NCBI GenBank assembly: GCA_973895155.1
Contig: OZ316893.1
Coordinates: 16,088,645 to 16,152,644 of the forward strand
DNA length: 64,000 bases
Direction of reading: 5' to 3'
Origin: Marsupella aquatica
Taxonomy: Eukaryota; Plantae; Marchantiophyta
Shown here piece after piece: positions 17,701 through 43,781 of the stretch. Numbering within the stretch: position 1 is the first letter of the stretch; each line of letters begins with the position of its first letter. The notes under the pieces are model-generated. The model searched no databases. It was given only the letters and a program-made list of their open reading frames with translations, and was not told the origin of the DNA. A program made the position numbers and the translations under genes.

Positions 17701-19356
17701 GTTCTAGCATGTGCCTCAGCTTCTTCCCATTGTTTTTGTCCTTCAGGTGTACGTTGAGGCCTTGGATCATGTGCAACATTTGGTGGAGGATCTCCTTCAT
17801 TGGGTGGGACACCTCCTTCACCACCAATGTCTACACCAAACCAATCTGTCATGAAGTCATCCATGGCTGACTCTTGGTCTTGCATGACCTCATAATATGT
17901 CCGAGGTGCCCCTTCATCTGGACTTTCATTATCATTGTCACTTGATGAGGAATCTGTTGATGATGTTTCCCCGTCTTGTGGCAAGCCCATTTCTTGATAT
18001 GTAGCTCTCAACCTCCTTGGCAACATATCTTGACTAGGCCGCACATTCTATAGACAATACAATAAAGCATTCACAATGAAATTAACTCCAAATATAGTAG
18101 TGCTCGAAACATATTATTAACAATATAAAAAGAACATGTCATTACAAAACATACGCTCACATACGATGAACGTATAATACATGTCCCTAAAGTAATCCTA
18201 ATCCCATTCATAATGTGTAAACAACTCCTCTCCAGCCAGAATGGTCCTATTAGCTACAACTAGACAATGGTCATGATGATATCTCTGCCCATAAGGGGCT
18301 GGAGGGGGACCATCAACAAAAACCCATTCACAGTTTTTCCTACGCTTAGGCCGGGTCCCCACAGTACTGTTGATGAAACCGGCAATATTCCCACTACAGA
18401 TGGGATCACCATCAATTATACGCTGGTCACAATATTTTCTGGTGCAACCATCAAAAGTATCCATGTCCAATGCATAAGTCTTCCACTCAGGGTGTTGAAC
18501 AAGGATCATGTTCCAATGTCTCCTCTTGTAAATGGGTCCACCATACGGGAACAACGTTGGTCCATCCGAAGAGCGCCCTTTTCCACCCATATCATCCACA
18601 ATAATGTCCTGACAAGAGAAAATCCCATACCCATGCCTCTCCCCTAGGGTCGAACTCTTGACAACCCAACGTCTTCCCCAAACTTCTATCTCCTCACCAT
18701 AGGTTATATCACATGGCAAACCAAGGCACTCCGGATTCCAATCCTTTATGATAGGAACACACTTCCCTGTGAAGGTACAAGGGCCCCATCTACCATCAAC
18801 CCTACAAGTGTACTGATCCACTTCCCCTCTAGGCTGTCTTTTTGACTTTTTTTTCCCTCTTGTAACAATACCGTCACCCTGAATTGTCCCAACACTACCT
18901 TGCCCTGTTGCCACTAAACGAAAAGCTTGTGAAAGTGCCGAGCCTATAGCATCTAGAACTCCTTGTGAGGGAACATAGGGTGTTGGTGTAGTGGGTGTAG
19001 GCCTACTGGATACCTATAGGAAGAAATGGAACCAAGTGAGTGTGATGAACCTCCCAAATTTTATTTTATGCTACCTAGCAAGATTTACAAAATAAAATGG
19101 AAATCACAGTAAGTTTACAACTCACCATACGGGATGAAGAAGCTCCCGGTGTAAGACCTCGATGTTGGCCATATCGAGCAATGTGCTCCGCACATACATT
19201 TGACTTTTGGACAACCATCCCCACACATTTTTTACAATCACAAAGTTGGCGTGGTGGACCACTAGGTTGACGTACGGTTGGTTCAGGCTGAGGAGGAGGA
19301 CAACTTTCTTCATCGGAAGAGGAATCTGTGGTGGAAGTTGTAGAGGATGAAGACAT
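14779..19356 (-). pseudogene. CACTA-A TnpD-type transposase (transposase-associated domain, Transposase_21, DUF4218, DUF4216); exons 19356-19126, 18047-16859, 16724-14779; two premature stops
   Basis: Motifs IHACVNDCILY, YNLPPWL, MHDYPG, LDPMHIEGN, KTHDYH, HLLVHL, WMYWLER and VFKCKWF. GT-AG introns keep the frame (1122 codons). Stops at 16159-16161 (TGA) and 15838-15840 (TAG) are consistent with C>T changes. Confidence 0.9.
18198..19356 (-). CDS. SET-domain protein carried by CACTA-A; predicted exons 19356-19126 and 19013-18198 (348 aa)
   Basis: SET motifs VKSSTL..HGYGIFS, YGG, IDG...GNIAGFINST and VVANRTILAGEELFTHY. The ORF is uninterrupted, and a phase-0 acceptor (TTCCTATAG) at 19014 is in frame with the upstream CxCxxC...H exon. 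Confidence 0.8.
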
Positions 19357-19789: not shown

Positions 19790-20760
19790 GTAACCCAAAA
19801 CCTACCCTAAACCCAAACCATGAAATGAAACCTTCATTAAAACCTAACCCAAATCCCTCAATCACCCTAAACCCTCACCCTCACCCTAACCAATACCCAA
19901 ATCCCTCATTAAAAATTCAAACCTTTACCCTAAACCCAAACCCCTACCCTAAACCCAAACCATGAAATGAAACCCTTCATTAAAACCTAACCCAAATCCC
20001 TCAATCACCCTAAACCCTTACCCTTATCCTAACCAATACCCAAATCTCTCATTAAAAATTCAAACCTTTACCCTAAACCCAAACCCCTACCCTAAACCCA
20101 AACCATGAAATGAAACCCTTCATTAAAACCTAACCCAAATCCCTCAAGCACCCTAAACCCTTACCCTTATCCTAACCAATACCCAAATCCCTCATTAAAA
20201 ATTCAAACCTTTACCCTAAACCCAACCCAAATCCCCCAATTACATATAAAACCCTTACCCTATCTACTTTACCTATATAGGCCAACCCCCACCCCTATAG
20301 TTATTCTAAACTTCACCCTAACCCCTAAATTGAGGCCCTTTTTTAAAACTTAAGCAAAAATTGAACCCCCTCAATTAGAACCAAATCCAACCCTATATCA
20401 TGTTACACCCCAACCCAAACACTTACATTAGAAACCCAACCCCTTTAAAAAAACCACAATTAAACCCCCCAACTAAAAACCAAACCCAATCCCTTTAAAA
20501 AACAACCACAATTCAACCCCTCAACTAAAACCAAACCCAACCCCTGTAATTACTCACAACCTAATGCAAACCTCTACCTTGAACCCTAAGCCAAACCCAT
20601 TAATTTAAACCCAACCCTTTTATTCCAACCTAACCCAAGTTTTAACCCCCTTAATTAAACCAAATACTCCTAGATTAAAACCAAATATAAACCTAACCTT
20701 TAATTAAACCCAAACCTTTGTTAACTTATATTCTAGTTATCCTTACAACCCAAACATCCA
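19790..20760. repeat. Telomere-like (CCCTAAA-rich) degenerate array including ~3 tandem copies of a 142-143 bp unit
   Basis: Unit starts at 19801, 19943 and 20086; almost no G on the + strand; lies between the divergent genes of CACTA-A. Confidence 0.85.
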
Positions 20761-23165: not shown

Positions 23166-26100
23166 AGAGTGACTTGTCATGTCGGAGCTTAGGGTAGGAA
23201 GAGGCAGCATAGGTTTAGAAGGGCGGACCTAGCATCAGATATTCCCCCCTCTTGTCCATGTATAGGGTTCTTTGAAGCCCTATCATTTTGTTCATGCTTT
23301 TCCATTTTATAAAACAACAATTTTGCCTTCCACATTGGGTCCCAAGGAAAACCCCTCGCAAATAATGTATTGAATCCTCTGTGATCATAATTTTGTGAAC
23401 CCTTTAAGAACTCATTCCCATTGCACAATATAAACCCCAAGGCGTCGCACTTTTTGAGTCAATTAACTTCAGAACTTCAGATCCAAATATGTCAGGTTTT
23501 TGTGATACTTCTAGGATCGCACTTTCCTAATCGCACTAGAAGAAACCGGCCCATTCTGAGACCCTGCCTTAAGTGACTCTAATGAGACCTTGCAAAATTT
23601 GTGACTCCTAGGTTTTGGGTGTCATTATAGTTACAAGTTGTGGACTGAGTTTTGGAGAATTCTTGGGAAGTCATTTCTATAACTATTGGGGAAGTTGCAA
23701 CTATAACTAAGTTCAGCCAACAAGAATGAAGTTGTATAAGTGACTCCCTCTACAATAGAGCGTTATATATGTAAGAGAGCCTTAGGGTTTAACACCACAA
23801 TCTAACCACATTTGACCCCGCCCAACACATACCATTTAGGATATATCCTAATTTTCTTAGTTGTCAATGGGACTAAAGGAGATGCCCTCGGGATATTGTG
23901 TGAGTACGCAACTCTACAAGGTAAGTAAAGGTCCTTGGTCAATGTCAATGCTAACAGATCTCAAATATATACTCTACATTAGAGTAGACTGAATTACAAC
24001 ATATGTATGCCACAAGTTTACAAGTGTTACAACATAACAAAATAATCCCAACTAGCTAGGGTCCCACAATGGCATGCATGTAATATTAATTGGACTCATT
24101 TTTGTGTCTAAATGGGTACATTTGAAGTTATCTCCTTGGTTATCTCTAACTCTCACATATGCAAGGGCAGGTTATTTTTACTTATTGCGCGCCATGCCAT
24201 GCATACATACCGTCATGTACCCCCTCCACACATTGTTCCATCTAGATTCCTTTAATTAAAGGTTCAAAATCACCAAGAACTGGGAATGCAGCTGGAACCT
24301 CCATGTACTTGGCATGTCTACATGTTATAATTAGACATATCTGATAATGGCACCCCACACACTATGCTCATGGAATGAGCATAAGAACTTGTGACAGTCC
24401 TTACCTTAATTAATCAAGCAAGGATCTGACGGTCGTAAACTTAATCAAAGGATGATCTGACGGTTGAAAACAAATATGGGCACATTAAACCAGGTTTAGG
24501 GTTTAATGGATTCCTTCACGCCAACTCCCATTGCGCCTTGGATTCCTTTGGATTTGCGGACGAGGAGCTGATCGCGCATTCTTTGCGAGGGAAAAAAGGG
24601 GGCAGTTTGTCGATCACTAAGGCTGAAGCTGCATTGACAAATTGCAATCCCGACTGCAATGGGAGTAGTAGGAGGCAAGAAGAGCGAGTTTAGGGTGTTG
24701 CATAGACAAAACAGAATGTGAGTCGTAGGCAACATTCAGCCATTGTATGTGTTTAGCATTGATCATAGGCACTGTGGGAGGCACTGCAGGAGGCGTTTGC
24801 CACTGCGCAAGGCACTGTAGGAGGCACTTGTTCCTTCAAGCTGGGAGAGTCAATTTGACGTTCAGCTGCAACCTGGGATCGAGAACCAGGAGCTTCTCAT
24901 TGCGGTTTGGTGTGCATTTGGACTGTTCTTGCAAAGTGGGACTCCAGGCCTGGAGACATTGCATTGATCGCCTTTGGATGTACATTGCAGTCCGACTAGG
25001 AGGCTTTCAAGTGGAGCTGGGTTGGAAGTGAGTTGAAGATTGAGTTGCCATCACATTGCAATAGCGGGGGATTGTTGCTCAGCTTCACATACTGCTACGG
25101 ATTACTACGCAGCTTCAGTTTGAGCGGCTTGGTGCTGCATCAGCCCATGTAAGGCTGCAATCCCCTATCTTTGCTATGTGACCTCGCGGCTGCAAGTTTG
25201 GTTGACTTCTTTGTGCTGTGAAGCTGTTTTTGACTCAGGTTCCGGCCAAGTTTCACCAGCGCAAATTTTTCTAAACATGAGTGTGGGCTACAACTGGTGA
25301 GGTGGAAGGGATAAGAAAATGCGCTACCGTCATTGACAACATCTCAACCTTTTACAGTGAGCGCTATTGACATTCGGCCGGCTGTAAGTGTATTTCAAGC
25401 TTGACTTTAACTTGCCATCTGCATGAACCGGCTTGCAATAGATGTTGTAGCTTTTGCTTAGCTGCATTCACCTCCCAAGATGCCCCGTGACATCCAGGTT
25501 TGCACAATGAGATAATAAGGCTGAAATGATAAGGTAGTGATTGCCAATGGATAAAAAGCTTTATGAGAGTTGCTTCAACGTTCAGCTGCAAACTAGGATT
25601 AGGAACCAGGAACTTGTCGCGGCAGTCCAGCTTGTTTACTTGGAGCCGGAGCTGGAGTCAAGTTTCACATGTTTCTTGTTTAGTGACAGAGTACTTCTGA
25701 GAAATGTGACAGCCCCTGTGAGAGCTTTCGGCACCAGTGAGGTAAAGGGTGTTCTTACTCATGCAATAGTCACTTTGACCTTCTGAGTTTCAGCAAATTG
25801 AGTTTCAAGTGCGGGCACTGAGAGTTGACCTGTTTGAGCTGGGGTCACTGAGAGTTGAGCTCTTTGAGCTACGGTTACAGAGAGTTGAGCTGTTTGAGAT
25901 GCGGTCTCATAAGTGAACTAGATCCTCCCCCGTGTAAACGTCTAGCATAGTCACATGTCCAAGCTTTGCTTTTGACTCTGAATATATTCACTGTCAACCA
26001 TTGAAGGAGCTACGTGCATGAATTGTCTACTTATTGGGTTGTTTAGGGATTCAATATACAAAAATGACAACTTGAGTAAGGCAGTCTACGGAGGCGCGAA

Positions 26101-27014
26101 AGAGTCGCGAGGAGTCGAGTTCAGCTACGGCAGTATTCACTTCAGTTGTCTCAATGTGGTTGGCGTGAGCTGCAGGTGAGCTTAGCTGTGTGCACATTTC
26201 ATGTAAGTCAGGTGGTCGGTGTTTTAGGCATTGCGGAACTTGATTGACCACCCCATGGCTAAGGTTTAAGGTGCGGACTACAACAAATATGTGTTGTTGC
26301 TGAAAGTGTTGGTGGTGAGCGACAACTGGTATTGTTTCAGCTAAAGGGAGCACATTGGAGCTTGTGTATCCATGACCTGCGACCGATTGCGGTTGCCTGC
26401 TGTTACAATTGCCGAATCAATCACGCACCCAATCTTGCGGGCAGACACAACTTTGCGGGAGTGTTGAAGGTTTAGGGTGAGCAACAGCGGAGAGCTCATT
26501 GCTTGGTGGCAGGGTTGAAGGTGGATGATCGGGCTGCAAGGCCAACCGGGGACTTGTTTTGCATTGAGCGATTGCTGCGGATTGCTACGCAGCTTCAGTT
26601 AGGGCGGCTTGGTGCTACATCGGCACAGGTAAGGCTGCAATCCCCTATCGACGCGGACTCACCTCGTGACTGCAAGTATAGTTGTCTAGGTGATGTATGC
26701 ATTGCGTGTTTAGGGTCTAGGTGACATCACTGCTAAGCAAAATTTGTGAGCTGCCTAGGTCCATTGCCGAATGTTGCTTCCTTTAAATTACCTGGTGCCT
26801 GCTGTTACAATCGCCTGCTCAATCATGCACCCAATCGCCTGGAGCTCATTTGCCTGGAGCTTCATCCGTCAGATTCAAACTGTTATTGCTGCTCTGCCCT
26901 TTTGCCATGGGTTGCCGGCCTACCGGATGCTATCAACAGATTAAGAACAAGTCATATCCTAAGTCCCGGTGTTGCAGTGATGTCCCCGACCCTAAGATGC
27001 TTTCCAAACTCATC

Positions 27015-27385
27015 TTTCTTGTTTCCTGTTGCTGCTGATGTATGTATGTTCTCCCCTATTTTTGCTTACAGATTGGTCTCTCCACACTTCTTGCTTGACA
27101 TGATTGTTTTGCTCCTCCCTGTATCAGAACATGCCTTGTGCCCGGCGGTGGGGTGGGGGGGTGAACAGACGACCTTAAGGTTCACTACATTTCTAGGAAC
27201 TGTGCATCTTTCAGCTGATTTTAGCCGCAAGTTCCCTTGCTTTCCCCTGTTTTTGCTAAGATCCCTCCCACTAATCACATGCATCTTTCAGCTGATTTTA
27301 GCCGCAAGTTCCCTTGCTTTCCCCTGCTTTTGCTAAGATCCCTCCCCACTAATGACATGCATCCTTTACTTTTCTCGGTGGCCCG
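27015..27385 (+). repeat. ~300-bp segment shared with 61900-62208, with an internal ~76-bp tandem duplication
   Basis: Shared strings such as GATTGGTCTCTCCACACTTCTTGCTTGACATGA and GCATCTTTCAGCTGATTTTA. Confidence 0.85.
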
Positions 27386-28553
27386 TGCGCCTGCCTTCCT
27401 ACTTTCGTTCTTATGGACTCTCCTTAGGTTTTCATTCACCTGGTTTTGGACTTTTTGCTCCGGTGGAATCTGTCTTGACAACTTGTGTTTGTTCTAATTG
27501 TTAATATCTCAAGAGGGTCGTCAACTAAGCTGAAAGGAGTCAAAGCTAACTACAAGCTAGCAAAATAATACAGAGAATGCTCCCAAGTCGAGTCAGGAGG
27601 AAGTTACTAAAACTAGACCTTCACAACTCTCGAAACTGGAAAGTGAAATTCAGCGTGAGACACGTAGCTGAAGGCCACAAGGATAACTATATGGCCACGC
27701 TGTCCCCCATTCAAGTCCAAAGTCCTCTTCAGATTGTCTGAACTCCTATTGAATGTATTGAATAATTATTTCATCACAGAAATTTTCAGAACAAACACGG
27801 AAGCACCAGGGGGCTGAGGATTAGGTATTGAGGCTGAAGACATTGAGGTCATAAACTAGGTGTGGTTCGGGTGACAATGTTAGCAACTGATGCTTCTTCA
27901 GGGGAACTTCCCATGTGCAGTTTATCCACACATGATTGACTTTGGTTCTTGCTGTTTTTCTTTTGGTGTACTCTTGAGTTTGGTGTCACTCTATCCTTTC
28001 CTGTAGCCTCGAAATAGGAACACACCTGCTTAGTGGTCCCCAATCGCCCAATGATTTATAATGACTGTGTCTAGGTGATGTATGCATTGCGTGTTCATTC
28101 CAGAAGAATGAATATGTACACTTTGCACAAACCTGGACAGATTTTGAATGTTATTTATCTGAGTTTCTGTTTGTGAGCTCTGACTTGGAGCCTTAACATT
28201 TGTGTTTCTGTGGGGCTGAGCAGAGTTTGTTCAGTCTAGAAGCTGCTGTACTGAAGTGATCAGCCTCCGGCTTGGAGGTGAATCTTCAATTTTTTGTGGA
28301 TCCGAGTGACTTCTGTCCAACTGAGTTTTGCTTTGTCGGGACGATTGTGTTTGGCTAAGATGCTAGATTGTGGCTTGTCTTCTTGCTTCCAGCTTGTGTA
28401 TTTTCAATTAATAGAAGTTGGGAACGAAGTGATAATTGAATTTCCTTATATTAAGCATCTTCACCTAGAAACTCAATACATAAACTCCAGGATTCCCTCG
28501 GGACATAAAATGAGCCAAATTGTCTCAAAATTGGGAACCTGCACCCGCACTAC

Positions 28554-28896
28554 TCAAACAATTGTGTTGGGCTTGGTGGCCTTGTAAGTCTTCTTTAGCT
28601 TTCGCAATGGAGGTTGAATCTTGCAGTACGTCAAGGGGAACTTGATCTTTGAATCATGGAACTGCTTGGTACTTTCTCGCTTGCACAGAGAGACAGGGAC
28701 TGTCGTAGTCTTCATGATCTGGATGCAAGGGAACCGAACTCTATGACAAGAAGCCATCTCATCATACATCTGCTCTGCAGCTCCGTTTCTTGTGGTATCA
28801 CAATATTCCTTGTACATGTTGTGATAACCTGTACGACTCTGATACGTGGACCCAGATACCGAAGTTCTTAATTGTGGTGGGCTTCTTTTTGAAGAT
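28554..28896 (-). pseudogene. RPL18A: Captured fragment (C-terminal exon) of 60S ribosomal protein L18a/eL20
   Basis: [46 protein letters not shown]...[18 protein letters not shown]. The frameshifted [11 protein letters not shown] start directly follows a CAG acceptor. No N-terminal half is present. Confidence 0.9.
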
Positions 28897-29904
28897 CTGG
28901 TAGACACATTATTCAGCATTTGCTAACTTCAAAACTAGAAGGGTAACACATTAAACAACAGAGAAACTCACAACATCCTCCTTTGGTCCTTTAGAGTCTG
29001 TACTTTGATTCTGAAGTTTGACTGAGTTTTTGTTTACTAAAAGAATGTGACTGTGTAAGAGTTCCGTTTGGCAGTGGATTGGTTGAAGCACTTCATGCTA
29101 GTGTGTTGTCCACAGCTCTTCAACCAGCTTTCGTCTTCCTTGTCTTTCACCACTTACGATGACATCAATTCAGCTAAGACCATAGAAGGTTCCAAAGCAT
29201 CTAACTTGTAAAATCGCATTCTGTTACATCAAGGACTAAGGTGTTGGGTGCCAAAGGAGACAGCACAACAAACACGCTGAAAAGACTTCAGGACTGGGTT
29301 CAACAAGGTAGTGAAGGTGCTTAGAGCCATAGTAAGTATGCATTCTGTATCTTTCTCTATTGATGTGAGCTTGTGCATAATGGGAGTTGTAGTTGGCAAG
29401 AGTTCCAAATATGAATAGATCCAGAAGTATGTGATCATGTACTTGCTCTATAAAGTTCTGAAGATATAAGCATTTTCTGTTAGACCAGGCAACTTGGGAG
29501 TTGGTAAGTGTCACCTGCATCTGAGGGGCTACACCGGGGCATCAGTGGAGGTTCACTTGCACAACACGACAACCAGTGAATTTTCTCTCTGCTGCAACCT
29601 GCAAGGTGAGACTTTCGGTCTTTCTGGATGAAAAAACAGGAGTTTAATATGATTGATATACATGTCCGTCGAGAATATGGGTTTATCACCAAGCTCTTTG
29701 TCTTAGGAAACTCATAAACTCAGAATCAAATATGTACTATGCACGTTTCATGCTATGTGTATACTATGACCTGTAGTTGGAACCAAGACAATGAGTGGGA
29801 ACTGATTAGTTTAGGTGGTTGCTGTTGGCGAGGCAAGTCGACCTCCTGCTCACCTTGCTCATCAAAGGACGTGAACAGAGGACATCACAACGAAAGCAAC
29901 ACTT

Positions 29905-30354
29905 ATGGTGAGGACCCGCAACGCTGAACATGTGCGACTTGCACGCAAGGCAGAGATGTTGCGCCTTGAGTATGTCAGACTTGGGATCCTTCCAGCCCAG
30001 TCTGCATGGTACTTTGAGTACCCTGTTGTTTCTAGGAACAACTACAGCCGGCCTCTACCTGCTTCAGTACCCTTCCCGACATCCTTGGTATTTGTGTCTC
30101 TTGTACATGACCCGCCACAAATTAGGTGCCAAGGGTGTGTACACAGTTGCCAATATGACTGTCCTGCCTGTAGGGCTTCTGGCCCAGAATTGGATGACCG
30201 TTCTCTTGGATGCCGATTTTTGCACAGAGCACAATGTATCATCTGGAACCACTCGCCATCCTGCAGTGTGCCTGGTGATGTCACTTGTCCTGCCCTCCCA
30301 GACCCCACCACCGGTGACTTTGGTGTCTACACATGTTTGGATCACATGCTCTAG
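29905..30354 (+). CDS. Cys/His-rich 149-aa hypothetical protein (possible zinc finger) in CACTA-B
   Basis: ATG-initiated open frame with CQGC..SC..DCPAC...C..H...C...H...C...C...C..H; same strand as the neighbouring cargo ORFs; no family recognised. Confidence 0.45.
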   Translation: MVRTRNAEHVRLARKAEMLRLEYVRLGILPAQSAWYFEYPVVSRNNYSRPLPASVPFPTSLVFVSLVHDPPQIRCQGCVHSCQYDCPACRASGPELDDRSLGCRFLHRAQCIIWNHSPSCSVPGDVTCPALPDPTTGDFGVYTCLDHML

Positions 30355-30970
30355 AGGACCACTTGTCACACCGCATGCACAGACCAGATACCATTGACCT
30401 ATAGCTTAACACTCTGACTTCAACACAGAGGATATTTACTTAAAATTTTGATGTATGAGCAATTTTGGGTCCAGGGTTTAGGGTCAACAGTACATAACTT
30501 ATATCCTATTATGCCTGCACTAAGCAAAATATCCTAATTTAAGAGGCTAGCAAACTCGCATAAAAGTCTCTATTGAAAGACTGCTTTCATGACTGCTTTA
30601 ACCTGGTGAACATTGCAACGTTGAATGAATTAATGGGCCATGTGATAATATGCAAAATGATTTATGCCTCACTTATTTGTCTCAGCCACTATCATAACCT
30701 ATTTAGGATGTATAAATTTCAACCCTTATGACACTGCTTCATACCAATCCTCTTCGAAGAATGCCTGTTTTACATGTCACGACTATTGTATGTGATTCAA
30801 ATGCATGAAATGTTGTTGCAGATCTCCTTTGGTGAATCATAGCCACAATTAAAATTGAGGTGTTGGTGGAGAAATTGTATTAGGGGATCAGTTTTGTGTG
30901 TGGGCTCAACATACCAAAAGTATGTGTGCTCTGCATCCTTGTGTGGCCATTCCAATTCATTGCAGTAGCA

Positions 30971-31113
30971 AATGCCTTTGTACCTTAAATGCTAAATATA
31001 TTTTACTTTCTGTGCAGTCTGCTAAATTGTAGAGTCTATCTAAATGCCTTTGTACCTTAAATGCTAAATATATATTACTTTCTGTGCAGTCTGCTAAATT
31101 GTAGAGTCTATCT
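30971..31113. repeat. 72-bp tandem duplication immediately upstream of the PHD ORF
   Basis: AATGCCTTTGTACCTTAAATGCTAAATATA...GTAGAGTCTATCT at 30971 and 31043. Confidence 0.85.
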
Positions 31114-31124
31114 CATGCGCAGGC

Positions 31125-31805
31125 ATGGCACGGCCTAAAATTCAAGCCAAAAAGCGTGTGACAGAGGTGAGAAACACAGGTGTACTTGGGGCAGATGCTA
31201 CTAACTTCTCTGCAAGTCAGATTTTCCAGAAGGCAGCTCATTGTTGTGCCATTTGTGACGATGGTGGGGGCCTGGTCATTTGTGAGGGCCCTTGCATGAG
31301 GCATTTCCACCTCAACCCGGAGTCTGACCTTGCTGCAGAAAACAACTGTCCAGGGGTGGGCCTCCCGTCAACACACCAGGGAGACTGGATGTGCACTGAT
31401 TGTTTGGAGAAGCAGGCTAAGTGTGCACAGTGTGGGAAGTTGGGGTCCTATGAGGGCTCTGTTGATGCTGCAGCAAATGTTAGGAAATGTCCAGACCATT
31501 TTTGTGTGAGATTTTTCTGTTTTGAGTGTTTGCCTGCTCATGCCACAGCTTGCCCACTTCATAGGTGCAAGGCATGTGGTGAGCATGATGATGACTACTG
31601 GACTGACATAGTCCACTGTGCTAGGTGTCCCACTATGTGGCACTATCATTGCCTGAAAGATCATCAAGCAGAGGGTTATGCTTGTGACAGAGAAATCTAT
31701 GATCACTCTGCACATGGTGTTGATCGATGGATATTTTATTGTCATCGCCATGCCATTGATCCTACCTCGCGCACTCCTGTGAGAGATCACATATCTTGGC
31801 TGTGA
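31125..31805 (+). CDS. Stand-alone EDM2/NSD-type composite PHD-finger protein (226 aa) in CACTA-B
   Basis: CAICDDGGGLVICEGPCMRHFH...C..C...C..CGKLGS...CPLHRCKAC...CARCPTMWHYHCL...IFYCHRHAID....TPVRDHI follows the EDM2 PHD region as recalled, including its distinctive YCxxHxID...TPxRDH tail. Confidence 0.85.
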   Translation: MARPKIQAKKRVTEVRNTGVLGADATNFSASQIFQKAAHCCAICDDGGGLVICEGPCMRHFHLNPESDLAAENNCPGVGLPSTHQGDWMCTDCLEKQAKCAQCGKLGSYEGSVDAAANVRKCPDHFCVRFFCFECLPAHATACPLHRCKACGEHDDDYWTDIVHCARCPTMWHYHCLKDHQAEGYACDREIYDHSAHGVDRWIFYCHRHAIDPTSRTPVRDHISWL

Positions 31806-32391
31806 AGCTGAACATTGTACATGCACAGTGCACCTGATGTGGATGTACTATTTTTTGAGATTGCAGAGATTCCAATTTTGAAAAGGAGTTGGGTAGGCGA
31901 GTTTATATAGGCAGCACTTATCTTGTGCTCTGGCGTCAGTGGCTGGGTACATGCCTATACAAACTTATCCTTACAAGCCTTCTTGGAAGTATTTAGGCTG
32001 AGTGGTCATTTTCATAAACACTTTCATCACACTGCTAAATTAAAACAGGACTTCTAAGTTGTAAGCGTATAAATTATCAGGCATGCAATTAATCAAATTG
32101 CCCTATAAGTTTGTCATTGAATGTATCCTCCTTTACAACAAAATATGTATGTGCCATGACAAGTTGGTTGCACTTCATTTCACCACGGATATGGATTTTG
32201 TAGTATATATTCAAACAATGTCCTGCATCCGTGCAGGTGCCTAGTACGTATTGTTCACATATCCCTTGTACCTATCAAAATCGGACCTGAGCACCAGTGG
32301 GCCAGATCAACTCAAAAAGCAGGAATTTTGTTGTCCTTGTATTGTCAGGTGAACCCATTCTTCCAAAATTCACTGTCATCACGTAGGGTGT

Positions 32392-33270
32392 GTGTACATG
32401 GAGCCTGGTAAACGTAGAAAGTGTGACCACCCAGCAGTGTTTACAGGGGTCAGAGCGATTTTGGTCCATGGCCAGCATGGGTTGACCAAAGTGCATTGGC
32501 CAACTGTACAGAAACGATTCTCTGAGCTCCATGGCACTGTAGTTCAGGACATCACTCCAGAGACTACACATGTTGTTGCAGGGACATGGCTATCAGTGAT
32601 AAAGAAGTGGTCATGGTCCTACATGAATTCTGCAATTACTAAGCAAGGCCTAAAAGTAGTTGAGGCCTCTTGGATCACAGATTCCATAGCACATAAGATT
32701 GTACAGGATACTGAGCAATATGAGTTGTGGGAGGATGAAGAAGCTACTGCATCAGCTTGGGCTGAACAAGAAGTCTGGGAAGCAAAGGCACGGCTTGCTG
32801 ATCTCCAATATGGACCTGTACTCAACAAAGGACAGAGCTCTACAAGGCTGAAGAGTATGTTGGCTGAGGAGACGAAGCAACCAACCCCCATTCTGAAAGG
32901 GCTGAGCATGGTATTTGTGGAGGCGGGAATTGGAGAGGTTAAGTGCAAAGTGTACAAGTCCACAGTGCTTGACCTAGGTGGGACAGTGGAGGAGAATATA
33001 ACAGAGGACACCACTCATGTCATTACTAAGTCATATCCCAAAGCCTGCCGCAAGTTTGGGAAGGGAGACATTCGCTTTTATGTCATGTCCCATAATGTGT
33101 TTGTGGTTTCATATGCTTGGCTTGTGGAATCAGTAGCAGCTGGGAAGCGTCAAAACCCAATGGACTATGATCTTTTTGAGGCCTGGCCACGGAAGGGTCA
33201 GGATCCTTACAGAGAGGACTATGAGACAACAAGTGAGGAATGGGTCATTAGCGATTCTGAATCAGAGTGA
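32392..33270 (+). CDS. Tandem BRCT-domain protein (292 aa), DNA polymerase lambda-like BRCTs, in CACTA-B
   Basis: Two repeats: FTGV...HGTVVQDITPETTHVVA...VVEASWITDSI...QYEL and LKGLSMVFVEAG...LGGTVEENITEDTTHVI...VSYAWLVESVAAGKRQNPMDYDL. Acidic tail; uninterrupted ORF. Confidence 0.85.
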   Translation: MYMEPGKRRKCDHPAVFTGVRAILVHGQHGLTKVHWPTVQKRFSELHGTVVQDITPETTHVVAGTWLSVIKKWSWSYMNSAITKQGLKVVEASWITDSIAHKIVQDTEQYELWEDEEATASAWAEQEVWEAKARLADLQYGPVLNKGQSSTRLKSMLAEETKQPTPILKGLSMVFVEAGIGEVKCKVYKSTVLDLGGTVEENITEDTTHVITKSYPKACRKFGKGDIRFYVMSHNVFVVSYAWLVESVAAGKRQNPMDYDLFEAWPRKGQDPYREDYETTSEEWVISDSESE

Positions 33271-33703
33271 GGAGTAGTAGCATCAGTTTGGACACAAGTT
33301 TTTTTGTATAAATCAGATCATTGAAATAAATGTGATCTTTGAACTAATGTACCTTGTTATGGTTGGTGGCAGTTGGGCTTATTTTACTGTTGGCGGATTG
33401 TTGTTTCCTGCTGCCTGGGGGTGTCACTGTAAACGTACATGCAGAGGCGGTACATTTGAGGACAGCGGAGGAGGTGGTGACACCCTCCAACATTTAGAAA
33501 TTTTGTGTCATTCACTTGACAATAGGTACACTACTTGCGAACCTGTTTTTTTCTTTTGGGGTGGTTTAGGGTTTGTGAGAATTTAGTACACGTTATGTTA
33601 ACTCTTTTGGCAGATACAGTCAGGGATATATGGAACACAAATACCACCATTAGGCATCCTTGTTCACTGCTGTCCATGACTGCAGAGCTCCCAGCCTGTT
33701 ACA

Positions 33704-36700
33704 ATGCACCCTGGTCACCACCCTCCCCAGACCCAGCCCAGGGCACAGGCACTGCCTTTGCATCATCCCACAAGGATATCACGCCATGATAATAAGCTTT
33801 GGCAGCGTGAAAGGTTACGAACCAGACTTTCAGGAGCCAGTAGGATGAGATGTCCTTGTGCAATCTGCCAAGGATCCCGTACCAGGGGTCTGAATGAGGT
33901 TTGGCGGCATATCGCGGTTCATGGAAGAGATCCACGACATCGAGTTTGGAATGATCCTGCAGAGGAAGATTCTTCCGACGAGGAGTGGAGGTTAGAATTT
34001 GATGCTGCCAATGCTGCAAGACGGGCAAGTGAGGTTCTGCCTGGTGCATTTGAAAATTTGTAGCTGGTCTCTGTGGGTTGTCAGCTCTCCAACGGGATGG
34101 TGCTCAGGCAGCACCACGTGACGAAGGAATTCATGTGGAAGAGATGGTGAGAGACATCTTCCAAGACTTGGATGCATTTCATGATGGGCTGGACAATGAA
34201 GAGGATACGGCTGCAGATGCAAGTGTGCCCCCTGTCGAAGAGCCTCTTGATGAGTTTGAGATAGGGCAGGAAACCCCTGGGCATGATGGGATGTTTGGCT
34301 CTCCCCTGCAAATACAGGAAGGCAGGAAGTCTTTGTACCCCGGTAGCAAATGTTCTAAACTGGGATTTGTCATCATGTTCCTGAACATTTGCGGCAACCA
34401 CAATGTCCCCAACGTTTTGGTTTCTGAGTTGTTGGCATTCTTGCGAACAACTGTGCTACCAGATGGTAATATTTTGCCCAAGAACATGTACGAGGCAAAA
34501 AGATGCATATCTAATCTTGGATTGAACTATGATTCGATCCATGCCTGTCCTGATGGGCATGTTCTTTTCAGAAAGGAGTATAAAGAATCGTTGACATGCC
34601 CTAAGTGTGGGAAGCACAGGTATCGGAACTCAGGAAAGTCTATGGTTCCCGCCAAGGTACTTCGTCATTTTCCACTCATTCCCAGACTTCAGCGGATGTT
34701 CAGAAGCCGTGCCATCTCGGAGATGATGACTTGGGCAACTGACAAGAAAAGTGATGATGGGCTACAACGACATGCTGCAGATTCAAGGCAATGGAAACTC
34801 ATAGATGAGATGTATCCCGAATTTGCTGCTGAGCCGAGGAATGTCAGACTTGGGCTGTCATTGGATGGGGTAAACCCATTTGGAGACAAGAACAACAAAT
34901 TTTCATGCTGGCCTGTAACTATTTTGAATTATAACCTTCCTCCTTGGATGACTACAAAGCGATTTTTTGTTCTGATGGTCCTACTGATACCAGGGCCAGA
35001 CAGTGCTGTATCTGCCAACATAGATGTGTTTCTGGCTCCCCTAGTGGAGGAATTGAGAAAGCTTTGGGAGGAAGGAGTTCTCACATATGATGTCCTACAG
35101 AGGCTTGGGAGGTTAAACCCATTCATCCTTAGAGCCATTGTCATTCTGACTATAGCTGACTACCCAGCCCATGGGATGATATCAGGCCAAACAACAAAAG
35201 GATATTGTGCTTGTACTATCTGTGGGCGCAATGTCACCAGTGAGTACTCCAGAGCCCTGCAGAAAGTGATATACATGGGCCATCGTCGTTTTCTGAAGAC
35301 AGATCACCCTTACAGAGAAAGACAGGCACTGATTGCACACTTTGGCAATGAGATTGAGCAACGTGGACCCCCGGCACGAGTGACCAAAGAGGAGATCAGG
35401 CAGTGGGGAGCACTGAGGGATGACTATATCAAACGAGGGGGCAGGGAAGATGGAGTGAGTGATCCAATAAAGCGATATGGTGTAAAAAGACTGAGCATAT
35501 TGGACTTGGAGCTCAAGTACTGGAGGGTAAGCCTCTTGGAGTTGATGCTAATTGGGATACATGTTTTGGTTCAGAGCATGTGCATTCATTTCGAAGAGAG
35601 AGACTAAACTTGAGGCATTTCCTGACGCTTTTGCATTGCAACGATGCAGGAGTTTGAGCCAAGCAAACATAACATTGATGTTATGCACATTGAAAAGAAT
35701 ATTTGTGAGAGTCTACTCAGATTCTTGTGTGGAGAGAAAGACACTGGTTCAGTGAGATTGGATCTTGAACAGAGGGGAATGAAACCCCATCTTTGGTTGA
35801 GGCCACATGCCCACAGAGCTGATGTGCTCTTGAAGTACCAAGCGCCCTATGTTCTGACAGACACAGAGTGGGAACTATTTGTGCAGAGGTTGAGTTCTTT
35901 GAAGGTTCCTTCAAACTATGGCAGTGCTTTCAAGAAGCATATCATGACTAGAAAGCTTGGTAGTATGAAAAGCCATGACTACCATATGTTGATGCAACAG
36001 GTGTTGCCTTTATGCCTGAGGGGCCTGTTGCAGAAGCCTGTTCGTACTGTGATCATGCGACTCAGTGATGTGTTTCGTCGTATTTGTGTGAAGGTTTGGG
36101 ATGAAACACACTTCCCACAACTGACAGAAGATGTCGCTCAGGTGCTGTGTGACCTGGAGATTTATTTTCCTCCCGCATTTTTTGATGTCATGACCCACCT
36201 ACTTGTCCATGTTGTGGAAGAGCTACACCAATTTGGGCCTGTGAGTGCTCGTTGGTTGTACCCTTTGGAACGGTACATGAAGCTACTCAAAGGTCACGTG
36301 AGAACATATTACAAACCTGAAGCAAGCATGGCTAAAGGTTACATCAAGGATGAGACTCTGGGATTTCTGACCGAATACATAGCACAATATGAGCATGTGA
36401 AGACCAGGGTGTGGAATTCTGATGAGGAGGAAGGGGTGGTAGGTGAAGTACTGGAAGGGGCTGCAACCACAAAGAACCTGACCATATCTATGAGAGACTT
36501 GGCACATGACTTTGTATTGCACAACACTGTGGTGATGGAACCCTGGATACAGTGAGTGCATACATGTGCTATAATCCAGTTCATGAGCTTAAATGTTGTG
36601 TTCGTGTGGTTTTCTCCTTCAGCCTGTTCATGTTTACCCAAGCTAATGCTGTGTGGTTGTTCGTTCAGGGAGTATGAGTCATTGAAGGCGGCCCATCCCA

Positions 36701-37434
36701 CTGCAGGAACAACTTTTCCAGGTTTCATGGAGTGGATCAGAGTGGCAATTAGAGAGCATCACGAGACCCACCCAGACATGGATGCAGATGTTTACCTACT
36801 GTCTAATGCCCCTAGCCTGAAAGTGAAGACTTACAAACGGATGAGAGCATATGGGAATCACTTCCGAGTGAAGGATGGTGACAGTGCCTACAGGGTGACG
36901 AATGACTGCGGGCTCATCACTGTATTTGAGCAACAGAGCCACAATCACGACAGGGCCTGGATGGAGATGGGATATGTGGGAGAATTAGTTGACATATGGG
37001 CTCTGGACTATGGGGCGGTGTCCAGTCCTGTGATTCTTATGAAAGGTTCATGGGTGCGGCAGGATTGGCTTGGTAACAGGGCTACCATGAAGAGAGACAA
37101 CGACGGTTTCTTGCTGGCCAATTTCAGAGGGAAATTGCCCGAATGGTCTGAGCCATTTGTGTTTCCTAGTCAGGTGGAGCAAGCTTTCTTCCTGGATGTG
37201 GAAGACTCCCCAGGTTGGCGTGTAGTGTGTCATAAACAGGCCAGGCAACGCCGGATGGAAGGATCAAACCTTGAGTTTCATTTACACTCTCATAGTGCCT
37301 TTGATCGTCGGCGTTCAGACCAAGTGCCTGTAGTTCATGATAGCGGGGACTTCATTCCTGTGACAAGGGTAGATGCATTTGCTGAAGGAGGCGAATTCAG
37401 AGATGCAGATGCCAACAGTGTGCCTGTGCCATGA
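33704..37434 (+). CDS. CACTA-B TnpD-type transposase; predicted exons 33704-34028, 34085-35526, 35650-36551, 36669-37434 (1145 codons)
   Basis: CPCAIC...H N-terminal domain, IHACPDGH, LGLSLDGVNPF, YNLPPW, ADYPA, DVMHIEKN, KSHDYH, FFDVMTHLLVH, WLYPLER and EPFVFPSQVEQAFF. Stop-free only if a short 56-nt GT-AG intron (34029-34084) is spliced. Confidence 0.85.
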
Positions 37435-37590
37435 GTAATGTGAATTGTTTGCATAGACATTAGTGAGGGGAAGGATGTGTAATAAAGTAATTTTGAAGCA
37501 ACACAGATGTATGGATGGATGCCTGGTGATTGTGGTTGCATTGTGTTATACGGGGTGACCATAGATGACATGTTTTTGTGGTCCAGTAGG

Positions 37591-40500
37591 ATGGAACAGA
37601 GTGACACAGAGATGTGTGAGTATGAAAGGAAAGCTATGGAACAACGAGCATACGTGAAAGCCAAAATCGCAGAACTGGATCTGGAAAAGGATGTGGTTGA
37701 ATTGTAAGGGAACGATTCTCAACTACACCCCTCCGCTGAGTTTGTGTGACATGAATAGTTCAATGTGGCACTGAAATTGTGACTGTATTCTCATATTGGA
37801 ATGTCGCAGAGCCACAGCATTTTCAAAGAAACAAAAGGAGTACGCAAGAAGGGTGACCAGCACTATCTCTGGGCCTGTGCGTCGGAGTGACAGGTTGAGC
37901 AAGAAGGTCGTACCTACAATGGCAGAATGTGGAGATGACATTGATGCTGCACAGGTGGGTGCAGACACTAGACAAGAAGATGCAGATGATGAGTATTTTC
38001 CAGAGGAAATGGATGAGGATGGGGGTTATGAAGATGAATACATTGCAGAGCAGCCCCAAAAGAAACATGTAAGTAGTTTTCCCAACAAGGTTTTGAGTTA
38101 AAAACTCTTGTTTAGAGGTTTCATATGTTCAGTACTACACATATGTACCTTGCTTAGTTCCTGACATTGTAGTTGGTGATGTGATGCAGCGTCCTGCCAG
38201 TTCTGTTTTGCCTTCGAAGCCTGTGCATGCACCATACCAGTAGGGGGGGCTGACCTCTGATCAAGGTTGGCGAGGTGGTAGTAGTGGTAGATCCCAGGCT
38301 GGTGCCCAATACTATGGCAGGGGGCAAGCTCTAGGTTATGCCCGTGGTAGAGGCAGAGCAGGTCCAAACCCACAATCTCGTGGGTATGGACGTCCACCTC
38401 AACCGTGGGGATGTGAGTATATATCTATATGCCAGTTCTTTGTGAAGGCATGGCACTCCTGAATTTCAGACTGCATATCAATTTTTGACATTGTTTGGGA
38501 TGTATTGGATTCAGACAACATGAAATTCTGTCCACCTGCCATTGCATGCAGATTCTGCCCAACCTGATTGGGCAAATGCTAGTAATGATCAGTTCCAATG
38601 TCCACAAGGACAGACATGGGTTGAACCAGGTTGGGAGGATGGTGGTGGGTCGTGGAATGAACAAGGTTGGGAAGGTGGTGAAGGTAATTGGCAGGGATAT
38701 CAAAATTCAGTACCTACAAACGCTGGAAGAGGAGCAGGTAATGTCTGATCTTGTCAGCAATGGAAGAACTCATTATATGTGGAGTCCATTCACGTGGGGG
38801 GGACTCTGCACATGTATAATGATAGAAAATGTATGTGTGCAGGTTGGACAGTCGAACCATCGACTCAAGTATTCACTAATGCCCCTATGCAGATGCAGCA
38901 CGGAAGGGGGACAGGTATGTCGGTGAATGTTCAGTTGTTTTCCTACAGTTTGTACTTAGTTTTCAGTACATATGTTTGCACACACATACCTAGAAAGTGA
39001 CATCATCCGGCCCCTGTACTAGGCTGGACAGGTGGTCCAGGGTCGCAACAATTTCAGAGTGCAGTCCCTGCACAGGCATCTACAGGCAGAGCTACAGGTA
39101 TGTATGTTTGAAGAATTTTTCTTGAAGTGAAGCATTGAATGTTGCCGTCATCCATTCTGCTATATGTAGTTCTCAAGCATGAATGGCATTGTATTTTCCC
39201 AGGTGGCTTCAGAACCCCAGGTAGGGTGAATGAAGGGGTGGCCAATACAACGCCCAGTACTACCGAGAGCAGTGCACGAGGGGAGGTGACAAAGAAAGGG
39301 AACGTAAAGTTGAATGAGAGACAATGGGTGGATGCTGAGTGTCCTCGCAAGAACCGATGGCATGCTGATTTGAAAGCTGAAGTATTGCGTTGGTTAGATG
39401 TGAGTGTTATTAATTTTAAAAAACAGCATCCAAAAGATTGGAAGACTGTATGTGAAAATGTTGCTGCCAAATGGAATTATGTGGGCAGTGATGATGGCGT
39501 GGACATAGGTTGCCTAGAGAGTACAGCAGGTAAAATTATCAAGCAAGAGAGGTGGAGAATGCATAAGGCTTGGAAGGAAGGTGGGGAGAAGCCAGATATG
39601 CCTCCACCAGCCAGTTGTGATGATAAAGTGTGGGCAAGGTTAGTAGCTTATTTTGTAACAGATGCTTCAAAAAAGAAGAGTTCACAGATGACCGAGGCCA
39701 GGTTGAGTGTTCAGAACCCTAATCTGACAGGAAGGACCGGCACTGCACCGACAGCTAAACGTTTGGTAAGAATGAATGGCCTAGCTATGTAATTTATGCT
39801 ACACTATGTACTATTTTTTAGTGTAAACCCATACATGTAAACTTTGTTTTTTAGTGTACGTTCCCTGAATATTGATCGATAACTTGTGTTTGCCATGCAT
39901 GTGCAGAAAGCCCAATTGGGGCAAAGCCCTTCAAAAGAAGAGTTGAGGGCTGAAATTGTGAACACCCGGGCTCAAGAGGGTGCATCTGAATCCTCCAAGC
40001 ATGTAAGTTATATGAGTTCTGATTGGTAATTGAATGACCTGCGTTGAATTTCAGGTGTACACTGTATATAACATTGATTGTGCATATATTGCCCAACATT
40101 TCATATGGAGTGATTGAACCTATACCCCTGTGTCATGTAGGGAGGTGGATCTTCACTTACAGAGATAAGTGGTCGTTTGAAGGCTGTCGAAACATGTCTT
40201 CCAGAGATCAATGAACGTTTGAATTCATTGACTGACTTGTTCCATGTGAACTTCAAGACATTAATGGAAGCTGTTGTGTCGGTGAGAGATAAAATTGATT
40301 CCAATTCTGCAGGAGTTCCACCATCACCACTTGAGGTGGCAAAGTCGATGCACTCTTCTGGCATGCCAACGACATGTAGGCTTGAAGGTAAGGCCTTTAC
40401 AACTGTGTGGGATATGATTATTAAATGTATAGTTTGAATTGACATTGTTTGTTGAATGTGTTATTTTCAGTAACATATATTGTGGTTGTTGTGTCCATAG

Positions 40501-41297
40501 AGAATAAGACAGGTGCTACAGAGAAGAAGTATGAGAACCTGGCAAATACTCGCTGTAATTTAGAGGCAACAAAGTTGCAGTCTGTACAAGCAACTTGTTT
40601 GACAGAGGGCAGTCAACCATGTTTGGATGAGGATGACATTGGCAAGGGAGTGGATGATATCAATGTTGGGGCAAATGAGGATATCAGCAAGCATGACAAT
40701 GATACCATTGAGCCAGATTCATGCTATGTAGATCTTGACTCCATTGCAGAGATAAATGATTTGCAGAATGTATCATTCTCAATGACAGGTGTGCCTCTTG
40801 TTGAGATAAATCCAACCAAAGAGTTAGTTGGTATGACACTCCCAGGTGATGAACCTGCTACTGTGACAGTCCTAACAGAGGAACCTACTGAGCCTAGCTT
40901 CACTACTGTGAAGAGAGGAAGCATGCGCACACGAAGCAAGTCTGCTGGTGGGAGCAGAGCCACGTCAAAGGTTTCATACAAACCTCCAAGAACAGTGCTG
41001 GCAGAAAGATCTAAGGTGGAAGTGGGGAAAGCACCTAATGCTGAGGGACAAAGTGGCTTGTTAGCTGTTGATGAGAGTGGAACACGAGTAGGATTTGCCA
41101 GAGTGCAGGTTGGTTCCACAACGTTCCATGGCAAGAGGATTCCCCCAGGTTATTCAGTAGTGTTAGTCACATTACTAGTGAAACCTAAAGCTGTCCTTCC
41201 CATTCCAAACACAAATGATGATCCTCCTCAAAAGACACTTGGAGATGCTGCAGGTTCTTTGGTATTATGGCCAAGCAAGTTCATAGAGGATCCATAA
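37591..41297 (+). CDS. CACTA-B second gene (TnpA-like; Ptta-type middle domain and Tnp1-like C-terminal domain), multi-exon, possibly disrupted
   Basis: Exons 37591-37703 and 37810-38068 splice in frame. Motifs VWARLVAYF...KKSSQMTEAR...TGRTG (~39630-39745) and FHGKRIPPGY...LPIP...TLGDAAGSLVLWP. One candidate exon near 38188-38410 contains stops. Confidence 0.65.
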
Positions 41298-43781
41298 CAA
41301 TGTCATGCCATTATTTGTTTGTAGTGTGAGTCATGTTATGTAGATTTTAGATGTCAAGAAGCAGTACAAGAATCATGTCCTCTTGGAGATTCATAGTATC
41401 ATGCATGTGCTTTCAGTTATCTCATCCTACAGTCATCAATTATGAGTTCCTGTTTTGTCTAAATTACATTGATCACATTGTAAACTATTCCATTGGAATT
41501 CAAATGATCTTCATTTTTTAGCAAGATTGTGATTGTGTTTAATTCTTATGAATGTTTTATGTAGGATCTGCTTATATGATGCTTTGTTTCATGTGGATGT
41601 CATTCATGCTATGTTCATTTCTTGTATTCAATGTGTTATATTTCTAAAGTTAGAACATCAGGTTTCTATGTATTGTAATGTCGAGTGCTCTCTCTTCTTA
41701 TGAACTGTCCCTCTGTGTTCATTAGTCATGGTTATAACTTGCATGTGAACCTTATTAGTTATAAACATGAGTATATAGAGTCCCAAATGGTTCTGTTGTG
41801 TGACGCGGGCCAGGGTCTCCATTGGTCTCTCCTGTGACACTAAATAGTCACACGCTAGTCGTTGTTGAATGCGGGTAAGTCATGTATGTGACTTACGATG
41901 TGACTCGCTGAAGTCATATTGCAGTCACGTCGAAACAAGGCTAGACTCCACAATAAAGTCACAGATCAGTCACAAATGGGTATCAAGCAAGTTGCAAAGC
42001 CCAGTATCAATAGTGACTTCCATTTTTTGGTCTCAACTTTTGCAACTCCAAGGGTCACAGCGTGGGTCAAGTCACGTTGAGTCACAATGAAGTCACATGA
42101 GCCAAAATGAGTCATATATTGCGGTCTCAGTTCACCTCGGATTCTTCTAGTGTCGAAACCGTTCACAAACTTCTAAACTCACCGGTATCGCTCTTTGTCA
42201 TACAATCCCCATCAAAACAATTGAACCAGTATCTTTCGCAAATATGATGCGATGGTAAATCCTTCTCAAATATCGACGCCCGCGCGGGACGTGTGCGTGT
42301 ATGTTTGCGAACCTTATGCGACGTATAATGGATTGCACAAGTATTGAATCTTGCAAACCTCTCAGCTTCGCAGTTTGCCATGGTGTTGCGATGCCGTTGC
42401 GATGGTCCGCGTGCGAAGTTATTAGGTTCACAAAGTGCAAAGGTGGTGCGATGCGCGTATGTTCGCAATGGCCAGAATTATGAAAATCAGGGGCTTGTTA
42501 GTTGCGATGAGATTGTCTTCGCAAAACCGGCCGATAGTGTTGTAGTGGAAGCTGAGCAACGCTGCGATTGAGGAAGGTCCTTCTGGGTTTGGTCTATTGC
42601 TGAACCAATAGTCAAGGAAGGCCTGCACCCTGGCGGGCATGTCGTCAAAGTGATGACGTTGTAAGTCCACCGTGCCAGGGATCTTGAAAACCTTGTCCGG
42701 GAGTTGGAGGAGTGCTTCTCCGAAGCCGAGGTACTTGGTTCCCTCAAAGAAGAACTTGGAGATCTCTGCATCCCGACAATACTTGCTCTCAAATGGAAGG
42801 TTGAGGTCATTGTTGTAATGAGAGCGCCCATTCAATCGGATAAGCCGTTTGTAATGCCTTTCGGCTTCATACTTTTGCGGGTTGTGTTTGACAAGTGAGT
42901 CGCAAGATGGTTACCAATGTACAAGAATTGGTACCAAAAGCGAATAGCCAAACTGGACATAATCATGACAGACATATGACAAAGTGTCAAGGGCTGGCTG
43001 AATCACTAAGTGCGCAAGGGGGCCGAGCTCAAAGCTTGCGCAAGGAAAGAACTGGTAAATTTGAGGCGGGGAAGAGTCCACCTTTTATACCCCTATCGTG
43101 CACGGATTGATTGGCCCTTCTTGCTCACGATAGGCCAAGCTTGTCATGCTCAAGGCTTACCAATCACTCCTTTAGTCCGGGTCAGAGCGTGGCAAAGACA
43201 GCCATAACTCGCCCCTAATCCGGCAGTATGTCAGGTGCCGTGCCGCCAGCCCAAGCATAAACTCCCATCATTACTAAAACTGATCCTAAGCATCATGACT
43301 AGCTAATTTTGTGACCTTATGCTAATAACTATGGATTCCTACGTCTACCTCATACGTGCTTACCACGGATTAAGCCGTATTACTCATTACCAGCCATACT
43401 GGCGGCGTCACACTGGTTCACTAAAGAACATGTAGGCCTATTTAATTGTAAAAAATACTTTTCAAAAGTTTTTAGGGTTTTTTTTAGTAAAAAATGACAA
43501 AATTTAAAGAAAAAATGGTTTTGCAAAAAAACAATTGTCACTTATAAGTTAGGGGGTCAAACCCTAAAACATCGCATGCAATGTATGGCCCTCCATATAG
43601 TGACCCCCCAAGCGCTATAAACAAAGTATGATGCGCATCCCTCCTTGCCCAAACCCTCAATTACTAACAAAGTCATGTCCCACGGGTTGGAAACACACGT
43701 AATGACAGGTTCTTTGGTGTTAGTGACAATAACAATGAGTCTAAGTTTCACTCACTAACTATAACTTGCTAATGAGTATAG

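Follow-up and report, generated by a model that had tools for sequence, protein, structure and literature searches.

Why should a DNA transposon carry the zinc fingers of a host chromatin protein, and what would these fingers do for it? The question is raised by the window analyzed here, i.e., the whole 64,000-nucleotide stretch of contig OZ316893.1 of the liverwort Marsupella aquatica, in which a sequence-only reading had noticed an open reading frame (ORF) resembling the PHD array of EDM2 between the terminal inverted repeats (TIRs) of a CACTA element. According to published work on EDM2, its PHD fingers bind H3K9me2 and, with AIPP1 and ASI1, EDM2 promotes distal polyadenylation over intronic heterochromatin (PMC7472560, PMC7529245, PMC9292364, PMC5364540, PMC11265718, PMC3632883).

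The ORF does lie within a transposon. In the whole window, a single pair of CACT-type ends (23534/42152) combines a match at 14 of 15 TIR bases with a target site duplication (TSD), TCG being duplicated on both sides, and none of 200 block shuffles yielded a comparable TIR/TSD pair. The element delimited in this way encloses the PHD ORF, as had been claimed, and contains the following features, apart from the PHD ORF and its surroundings:

23531..23533, no strand: left TSD copy, TCG (3 bp), from the TIR/TSD pair search
23534..42152, plus strand: whole CACTA/EnSpm element, 18,619 bp, from the TIR pair, the TSD and the transposase domains; likely autonomous
23534..23548, plus strand: left TIR, beginning CACTA, from the TIR search
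28557..28900 (approximate), minus strand: fragment of a ribosomal protein L18a gene (PF01775, E 3e-18), frameshifted and decaying
29905..30354, plus strand: Cys/His-rich ORF, 149 aa, a possible third accessory gene, covered by contigs in all four sequencing runs
32398..33270, plus strand: two-BRCT ORF, 290 aa (PF00533, E 2e-13)
33704..34063, plus strand: ORF with a transposase-associated zinc domain (PF13963, below cut-off)
34144..37434, plus strand: TnpD transposase, with candidate introns at 35527-35649 and 36552-36668
39139..41297, plus strand: TnpA-like region, with a weak PF03004 match at 39139-39792 (E 1.5e-4, below cut-off) and further, inferred exons
41751..42137, no strand: subterminal cluster of GTGACT repeats, with 10 copies within the final 400 bases, compared with 0.4 per kb in the interior of the element
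42138..42152, minus strand: right TIR, from the TIR search
42153..42155, no strand: right TSD copy, TCG, from the TIR/TSD pair search

Downstream of the PHD ORF, Pfam identified the TnpD domains PF02992 (E 1e-70), PF13960 and PF13952, and three reading frames of TnpD fuse stop-free and in frame across two GT-AG introns. Taken together, the TIR/TSD pair, the subterminal cluster and the in-frame TnpD indicate that the element is complete and likely autonomous. From left to right, it consists of about 6 kb of mostly non-coding DNA, within which the L18a fragment sits, followed by the Cys-rich ORF, the PHD ORF, the two-BRCT ORF, TnpD and the TnpA-like region.

The PHD ORF and the DNA immediately ahead of it contain the following parts:

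30970..31113, plus strand: 72-bp tandem duplication with splice-acceptor-like sites, immediately upstream of the PHD ORF
31125..31805, plus strand: stand-alone EDM2-type zinc-finger ORF, 226 aa, from the ORF call, Pfam, profile searches and the tree
31245..31403, plus strand: finger 1 (aa 41-93), with eight ligands present and no acidic residue ahead of Cys1
31422..31562, plus strand: finger 2 (aa 100-146), in which C132 replaces a His, as in the whole family, and the loop has 7 residues
31566..31802, plus strand: finger 3 (aa 148-209), together with the TPxRDHI motif of EDM2 type at the C-terminus

The ORF had been described as intact and as almost entirely PHD array, and both descriptions hold: it is stop-free, and the finger module (aa 41-223) makes up 183 of the 226 residues, with a basic N-terminus as the remainder. 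Two other descriptions hold in part. The motif TPVRDHI is present, but the protein actually terminates three residues further, as TPVRDHISWL; and the coding region is intronless, but an acceptor-like CAG two bases 5′ of the ATG makes an intron in the 5′ UTR likely.

Pfam found no domain other than the zinc-finger module in this ORF, and its NSD-type PHD models match all three fingers, each below the curated cut-off (E 5e-5, 7e-5 and 7e-3). The 24 ligand positions align to the three-finger spacing, one of them with Cys for His. The suggestion that the fingers are of EDM2 type, rather than NSD-type or unrelated zinc fingers, was borne out by profile scores and by the tree. A profile built from the family scores 105 bits on full-length grass EDM2 and 38-40 bits on NSD proteins, and for the C-terminal segment by itself the scores are 49 and 6-9 bits; in a search of longer proteins, 3 of 3098 candidates passed, i.e., one of EDM2 type (E 1e-15) and two NSD proteins (E 1e-4 and 6e-4). 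A first tree of 12 rows left the choice between EDM2 and NSD affinity open; in the tree used here, the ORF places on the EDM2 side with support of 90/80. Two AlphaFold models of the protein are weak (mean pLDDT 49 and 57), and for neither did Foldseek give a match with E at or below 0.001. The NSD1/2/3 arrays (PHDV-C5HCH) have a ligand spacing identical to that of the PHD ORF and are the best structural match for fingers 2-3 of the better, low-confidence model (Z 4.7, rmsd 3.0, 72 aligned, low significance), but their sequence score is much lower, they lack the TPxRDHI tail, and the PHD ORF has neither SET nor PWWP. With Arabidopsis EDM2 it shares the atypical PHD array, including an insert within finger 1, and the TPxRDHI at the C-terminus. 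Unlike EDM2, it is transposon-borne, has the His-to-Cys swap and the short finger 2 loop, and lacks the RFD, the acidic regions and the methyltransferase-like ELP domain (full EDM2, L001, carries PF12047), and with them domains that in EDM2 might recruit RNA-processing partners. Judged by its sequence, the PHD ORF is an EDM2-type triple zinc-finger module without a further domain.

Short proteins related to this ORF make up a family, at 36-82% identity. Of 124 candidates matched in length, five are full-length relatives (217-245 aa, 37-82% identity), all of which stop at the same DHISW motif and most of which begin MAR. Our exhaustive profile search returned 566 matches at E 0.001 or better, and among the 150 matches listed there are 14 with the family motifs, which occupy most of the top ranks and in 4 of which the C-terminal motif is visible. 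Several relatives, judged by the protein sequences alone, pass into unrelated tails, as broken copies would. The 13 family representatives that we looked up are all found solely in Logan, JGI or ENA assemblies, and most long host relatives bear NCBI names; annotated proteins of Marchantia, Riccia and Calypogeia were matched, yet no family member that we looked up is among the annotated gene sets. Linkage of the gene to a transposon is demonstrated for this element and its near-identical sisters, and since the distant relatives were seen apart from their flanking DNA, it is presumed for them. The search for further family loci covered metagenome contigs, where 221 pattern matches gave 11 loci and none of this family (they are grass EDM2, short EDM2-like transcripts and algal PHDs), and viral contigs, with 0 of 42, 0 of 128 and 0 of 319. 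In genome contigs the yield was 1 of 20, from a bacterial stretch that lacks the ligand pattern and that we dismissed as chance. A bacterial promoter scan of the locus stayed at chance level and is not relevant to plant DNA.

Finger 2 carries the mark of this family. The sequence-only reading had noted FFCFEC and had taken the zinc ligand set to be altered; in the alignment, FFCFEC does stand where host proteins carry FYHPxC, so the site differs, but no ligand is lost. Cys can bind zinc, and the His-to-Cys change, which is common to the whole family, is therefore a swap. Ligand 5 of finger 2 is Cys followed by a 7-residue loop in 9 of the 142 rows examined, all 9 of them family members, and the host-type rows listed have His at this ligand and a loop of 15-36 residues. 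P0004 has lost two finger 2 ligands. Ahead of finger 1, an acidic residue at -5 to -2 is present in 30 of 30 host proteins and in none of 15 family members, which also lack the acidic tract of full EDM2; all 15 do carry the acidic residue that follows Cys3 of finger 1. We take these positions around finger 1 to be those that contact H3K4 and H3R2 in PHD fingers. With the residue ahead of finger 1 lost throughout the family, EDM2-like reading of H3K9me2 cannot be assumed, and histone reading may be altered or lost.

Is the ORF maintained by selection? Among the first six family members, the zinc-ligand columns are invariant in 22 of 24 cases and the other columns in 30 of 202, and this ligand invariance holds at 36-40% identity between members. 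Aligning the contigs of four sequencing runs to the ORF gave 68 variant rows, and we analyzed the 40 that were listed. Among these, 34 variants lie inside the PHD ORF, 15 synonymous and 19 non-synonymous, with no stops and no ligand changes. The synonymous share (15/34) exceeds the expected 0.21-0.26 (p 0.002-0.014; rough pN/pS 0.34-0.43), an estimate that pools copies 80-99% alike to this element and scores each change singly, with no codon model. Counting against constraint, five of the six PHD ORF variants listed in a wider set are non-synonymous; three of these six are sites where the copy in the window deviates from most of the depth. No indel at a share of at least 10% falls inside the PHD ORF and two fall just after it, and the 12 indels listed, of 46 in the wider set, are all outside the three cargo ORFs. 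Gapped low-depth contigs over the PHD ORF do occur.

In runs X1 and X3, contigs with zero or one difference flank the PHD ORF and reach the start of TnpD at one shared depth, and in X1 near-identical contigs also span the BRCT gene. Compared with the divergent contigs of low depth in these two runs, their depth is about 80-fold; since depth is not copy number and X1 is possibly the source sample, this is only a hint that the element belongs to a young multi-copy family. The ORF is not a single-copy recent capture, and the long independent evolution that had been proposed is borne out, under constraint, by ligand invariance and the synonymous excess.

The other cargo of the element can be set beside the PHD ORF. 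In the L18a fragment, homology shifts between frames, and it serves as an internal control for unselected cargo; since it begins at an acceptor-like site, it was likely captured from genomic DNA. The 149-aa Cys/His-rich ORF has no Pfam match and no usable Atlas match, its first three listed variants are synonymous, and the listed indels lie outside it. The two BRCT units of the 290-aa ORF align with each other, and 2 of 1261 candidates are full-length relatives, at 54-60%; the BRCT protein could act in excision-site repair. A PDB profile search gave only weak, generic BRCT matches and did not confirm a possible resemblance of these units to the BRCT at the N-terminus of plant DNA polymerase lambda. 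The decay expected of neutral Pack-CACTA cargo is not seen in the PHD ORF, which shows the synonymous excess and ligand invariance instead, and we consider it probable that this ORF is a selected accessory gene of the transposon.

From where was it taken? In a tree of 51 rows, picked from about 160 proteins with most near-redundant seed-plant EDM2s and fragments omitted, the 11 family members form one clade (99/94) that nests at 100/100 with liverwort paralogs of EDM2, apart from the full-length liverwort EDM2s. In a 29-row tree that omits the long-branch P0158, support for the grouping of family and paralogs drops to SH-aLRT 86, and AU tests rejected neither a sister grouping with full liverwort EDM2 (p 0.32) nor one with the grass short genes (p 0.08), so that the paralog is the best-supported donor and not a proven one. 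The EDM2 ancestry originally proposed is right as to type, but instead of EDM2 itself the donor with the best support is a paralog of it in liverworts, in which the protein ends after the fingers, and the PHD ORF likely descends from such a paralog. The tree also suggests that the host is a liverwort or a similar non-seed plant. The nearest host relatives by tree (Marchantia MPTK1_1g03210, Riccia R1sor_003797 and Calypogeia CAM6087769) have a finger 3 Trp in common with the family and end 3-47 residues past the module, yet they retain a long N-terminal part and, unlike the family, have His at ligand 5, a loop of 25-27 residues and an acidic residue ahead of finger 1. Identity between the family and the host paralog is 32% overall, a loop of about 20 residues has been lost, and fingers 2 and 3 have strongly diverged; we infer that capture took place long ago and that the N-terminal part was lost.

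While the anatomy and conservation of the PHD ORF are solid, its function is a matter of weighing explanations. That the protein reads H3K9me2 like EDM2, or acts in polyadenylation of the AAE type, is not supported so far. We favor, tentatively and at somewhat less than an even chance for the two parts jointly, a selected accessory gene whose product is predicted to be a nuclear, non-catalytic adaptor that would help to keep the element expressed in silenced chromatin. An element 18 kb long whose transposase lies at the 3′ end would be helped by any protein that made transcription through H3K9-methylated chromatin easier. The PHD ORF would be expressed from a spliced leader, its basic N-terminus would allow nuclear import, and the protein would dock either on nucleosomes or on a chromatin partner from the host, its specificity having moved away from that of EDM2. 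TnpA bound at the subterminal repeats could lend it specificity for the element, and the docked protein would favor full-length transcription to TnpD and TnpA at the 3′ end. In published work on NSD proteins, the NSD1 PHDV-C5HCH module binds Nizp1 and, only very weakly, H3, NSD paralogs at 61-64% identity differ in their binding partners (PMC4838375), and the NSD fold switches between histone and non-histone partners (PMC4838375, PMC11724302); this partner switching, together with the differences of the family from host proteins, leads us to favor an adaptor with shifted specificity over the alternatives. A recent preprint reports that Arabidopsis Spm elements activated by TnpA retain H3K9me (bioRxiv 10.64898/2026.08.24.746577).

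The same evidence of selection and anatomy would fit a protein that steers insertion by anchoring the TnpA/TnpD complex on nucleosomes that belong to a single type of chromatin, with the BRCT protein perhaps acting at break repair. Immediately downstream of the PHD ORF come the two-BRCT gene and the transposase, all 15 members retain the acidic residue behind Cys3 of finger 1, and the chromodomains of chromoviruses provide a precedent for insertion guided by a reader. Nonetheless, the protein is encoded on its own, unfused to the transposase, between a conserved start and a conserved stop, and we regard this targeting role as unlikely. Loss of the acidic residue ahead of finger 1 across the family could also mean that the protein reads no histone at all and is a decoy, which sequesters a non-histone partner of the host EDM2-family paralog and so weakens a silencing or surveillance complex in trans. 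The likeness of fingers 2-3 of the low-confidence model to NSD PHDV-C5HCH, and the partner preferences of the NSD modules, agree with this. A protein that mimics a conserved surface for a partner would hardly be expected to diverge from the host paralog as strongly as fingers 2 and 3 have, and other elements would profit from a trans-acting benefit too; we consider a decoy quite unlikely.

Two further explanations were considered. The short family might consist of host genes on which selection acted, only this CACTA lineage having gained a copy; stand-alone EDM2-like finger genes do occur as spliced host genes in grasses, and the distant members are known from protein sequence with their DNA context unseen. 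Such an origin is improbable, since the looked-up members are absent from annotated gene sets despite the liverwort matches there, the synonymous excess lies among close copies of this element, and the grass genes fall elsewhere in the tree. These grass genes resemble the PHD ORF as stand-alone finger modules with a basic N-terminus, but they contain introns, nest among seed-plant EDM2s in the best tree, and keep the His ligand and the long loop. Least probable, in our view very much so, is that the ORF is neutral cargo, small-RNA camouflage or a single exon from which, by splicing, a longer protein of the transposon is made. Pack-CACTA elements are known to capture genes, and camouflage has been reported as well (PMC13317346), and the acceptor-like site ahead of the ATG would suit an exon, but ligand invariance at such low identity, the synonymous excess, the conserved MAR start and the conserved stop position all argue against it, as does the decay of the neutral L18a fragment that this element also carries.

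That a DNA transposon can take over a host chromatin protein and put it to use is already known, VANC having been proposed to derive from a MAIN-like protein of the host (PMC13547354). What appears to be new is a family of EDM2-type fingers carried by CACTA elements: in full-text searches, judged by titles and abstract openings and with most subscription journals outside their scope, we found no report of a transposon-borne PHD or EDM2-type gene in CACTA/EnSpm, and term searches of PMC13547354, PMC13317346 and bioRxiv 10.64898/2026.08.24.746577 gave no mention of a transposon-borne PHD gene. VANC (VANDAL/MuDR), TnpA (Spm) and TET/JBP are all, like the PHD ORF, extra chromatin-related genes on DNA transposons. 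TET/JBP is reportedly an accessory enzyme in fungal DNA transposons (PMC12730594). Like VANC and TnpA, the PHD ORF is element-encoded and likely selected, with linkage seen for this element and its near-identical sisters; unlike these sequence-specific DNA binders and TET/JBP, it encodes a PHD-type module in which neither catalysis nor DNA-sequence specificity is evident. The plant counter-silencing proteins that we found described, VANC and TnpA, come from flowering plants, and if our reading is true, selected EDM2-type fingers on a transposon represent a different design, drawn from the host machinery that senses heterochromatin, in a non-seed plant. The PHD ORF is a small test object for transposon transcription through H3K9-methylated chromatin, the family is a natural variant series for binding by EDM2-type fingers, and the finding draws attention to an unstudied liverwort EDM2 paralog. 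A wider proposal, which we regard as doubtful, is that CACTA elements in plants of the liverwort kind are equipped with an ancient and selected toolkit of enzyme-stripped host modules (an EDM2-type reader, a doubled BRCT and a Cys-rich protein), and that the reader turns host heterochromatin read-through machinery to full-length transposase transcripts while the element stays H3K9-methylated.

Our searches also recorded host proteins with EDM2-type fingers in other settings. The liverwort EDM2 paralogs P0017, P0020, P0022 and P0033 end after the fingers, without the C-terminal methyltransferase-like part. In grasses, L002-L007 are spliced, transcribed short EDM2-like genes consisting mainly of the finger module, and are probably an independent truncation. 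In P0143 (1635 aa), EDM2-type fingers are combined with a protein kinase domain, which may reflect a gene-model fusion.

Elsewhere in the window, a second CACTA-type element has a TnpD at 14779-18026 on the minus strand, and its ends were not found. It contains a SET-domain ORF (18201-19356, minus strand; PF00856, E 4e-6, above cut-off) that sits between a transposase-associated zinc-domain exon and TnpD and has no PDB sequence match; under the wider, doubtful proposal above, this neighbor would suggest that chromatin-related cargo is a recurring strategy in this genome. Beside the second element lies an array of 143-bp units rich in AAACCC-type repeats (19791-20716). About 300 bases are 81% identical between 27010-27381, inside the first element, and 61894-62210, upstream of a Myb gene (61079-61555); they are either captured DNA or a repeat of small size. 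Other repeat families have several dispersed copies, 71-92% identical, at 231-5348, 12954-14023, 42547-43126 and 47398-53604, in both direct and inverted orientation, and some contain ORFs without a Pfam match.
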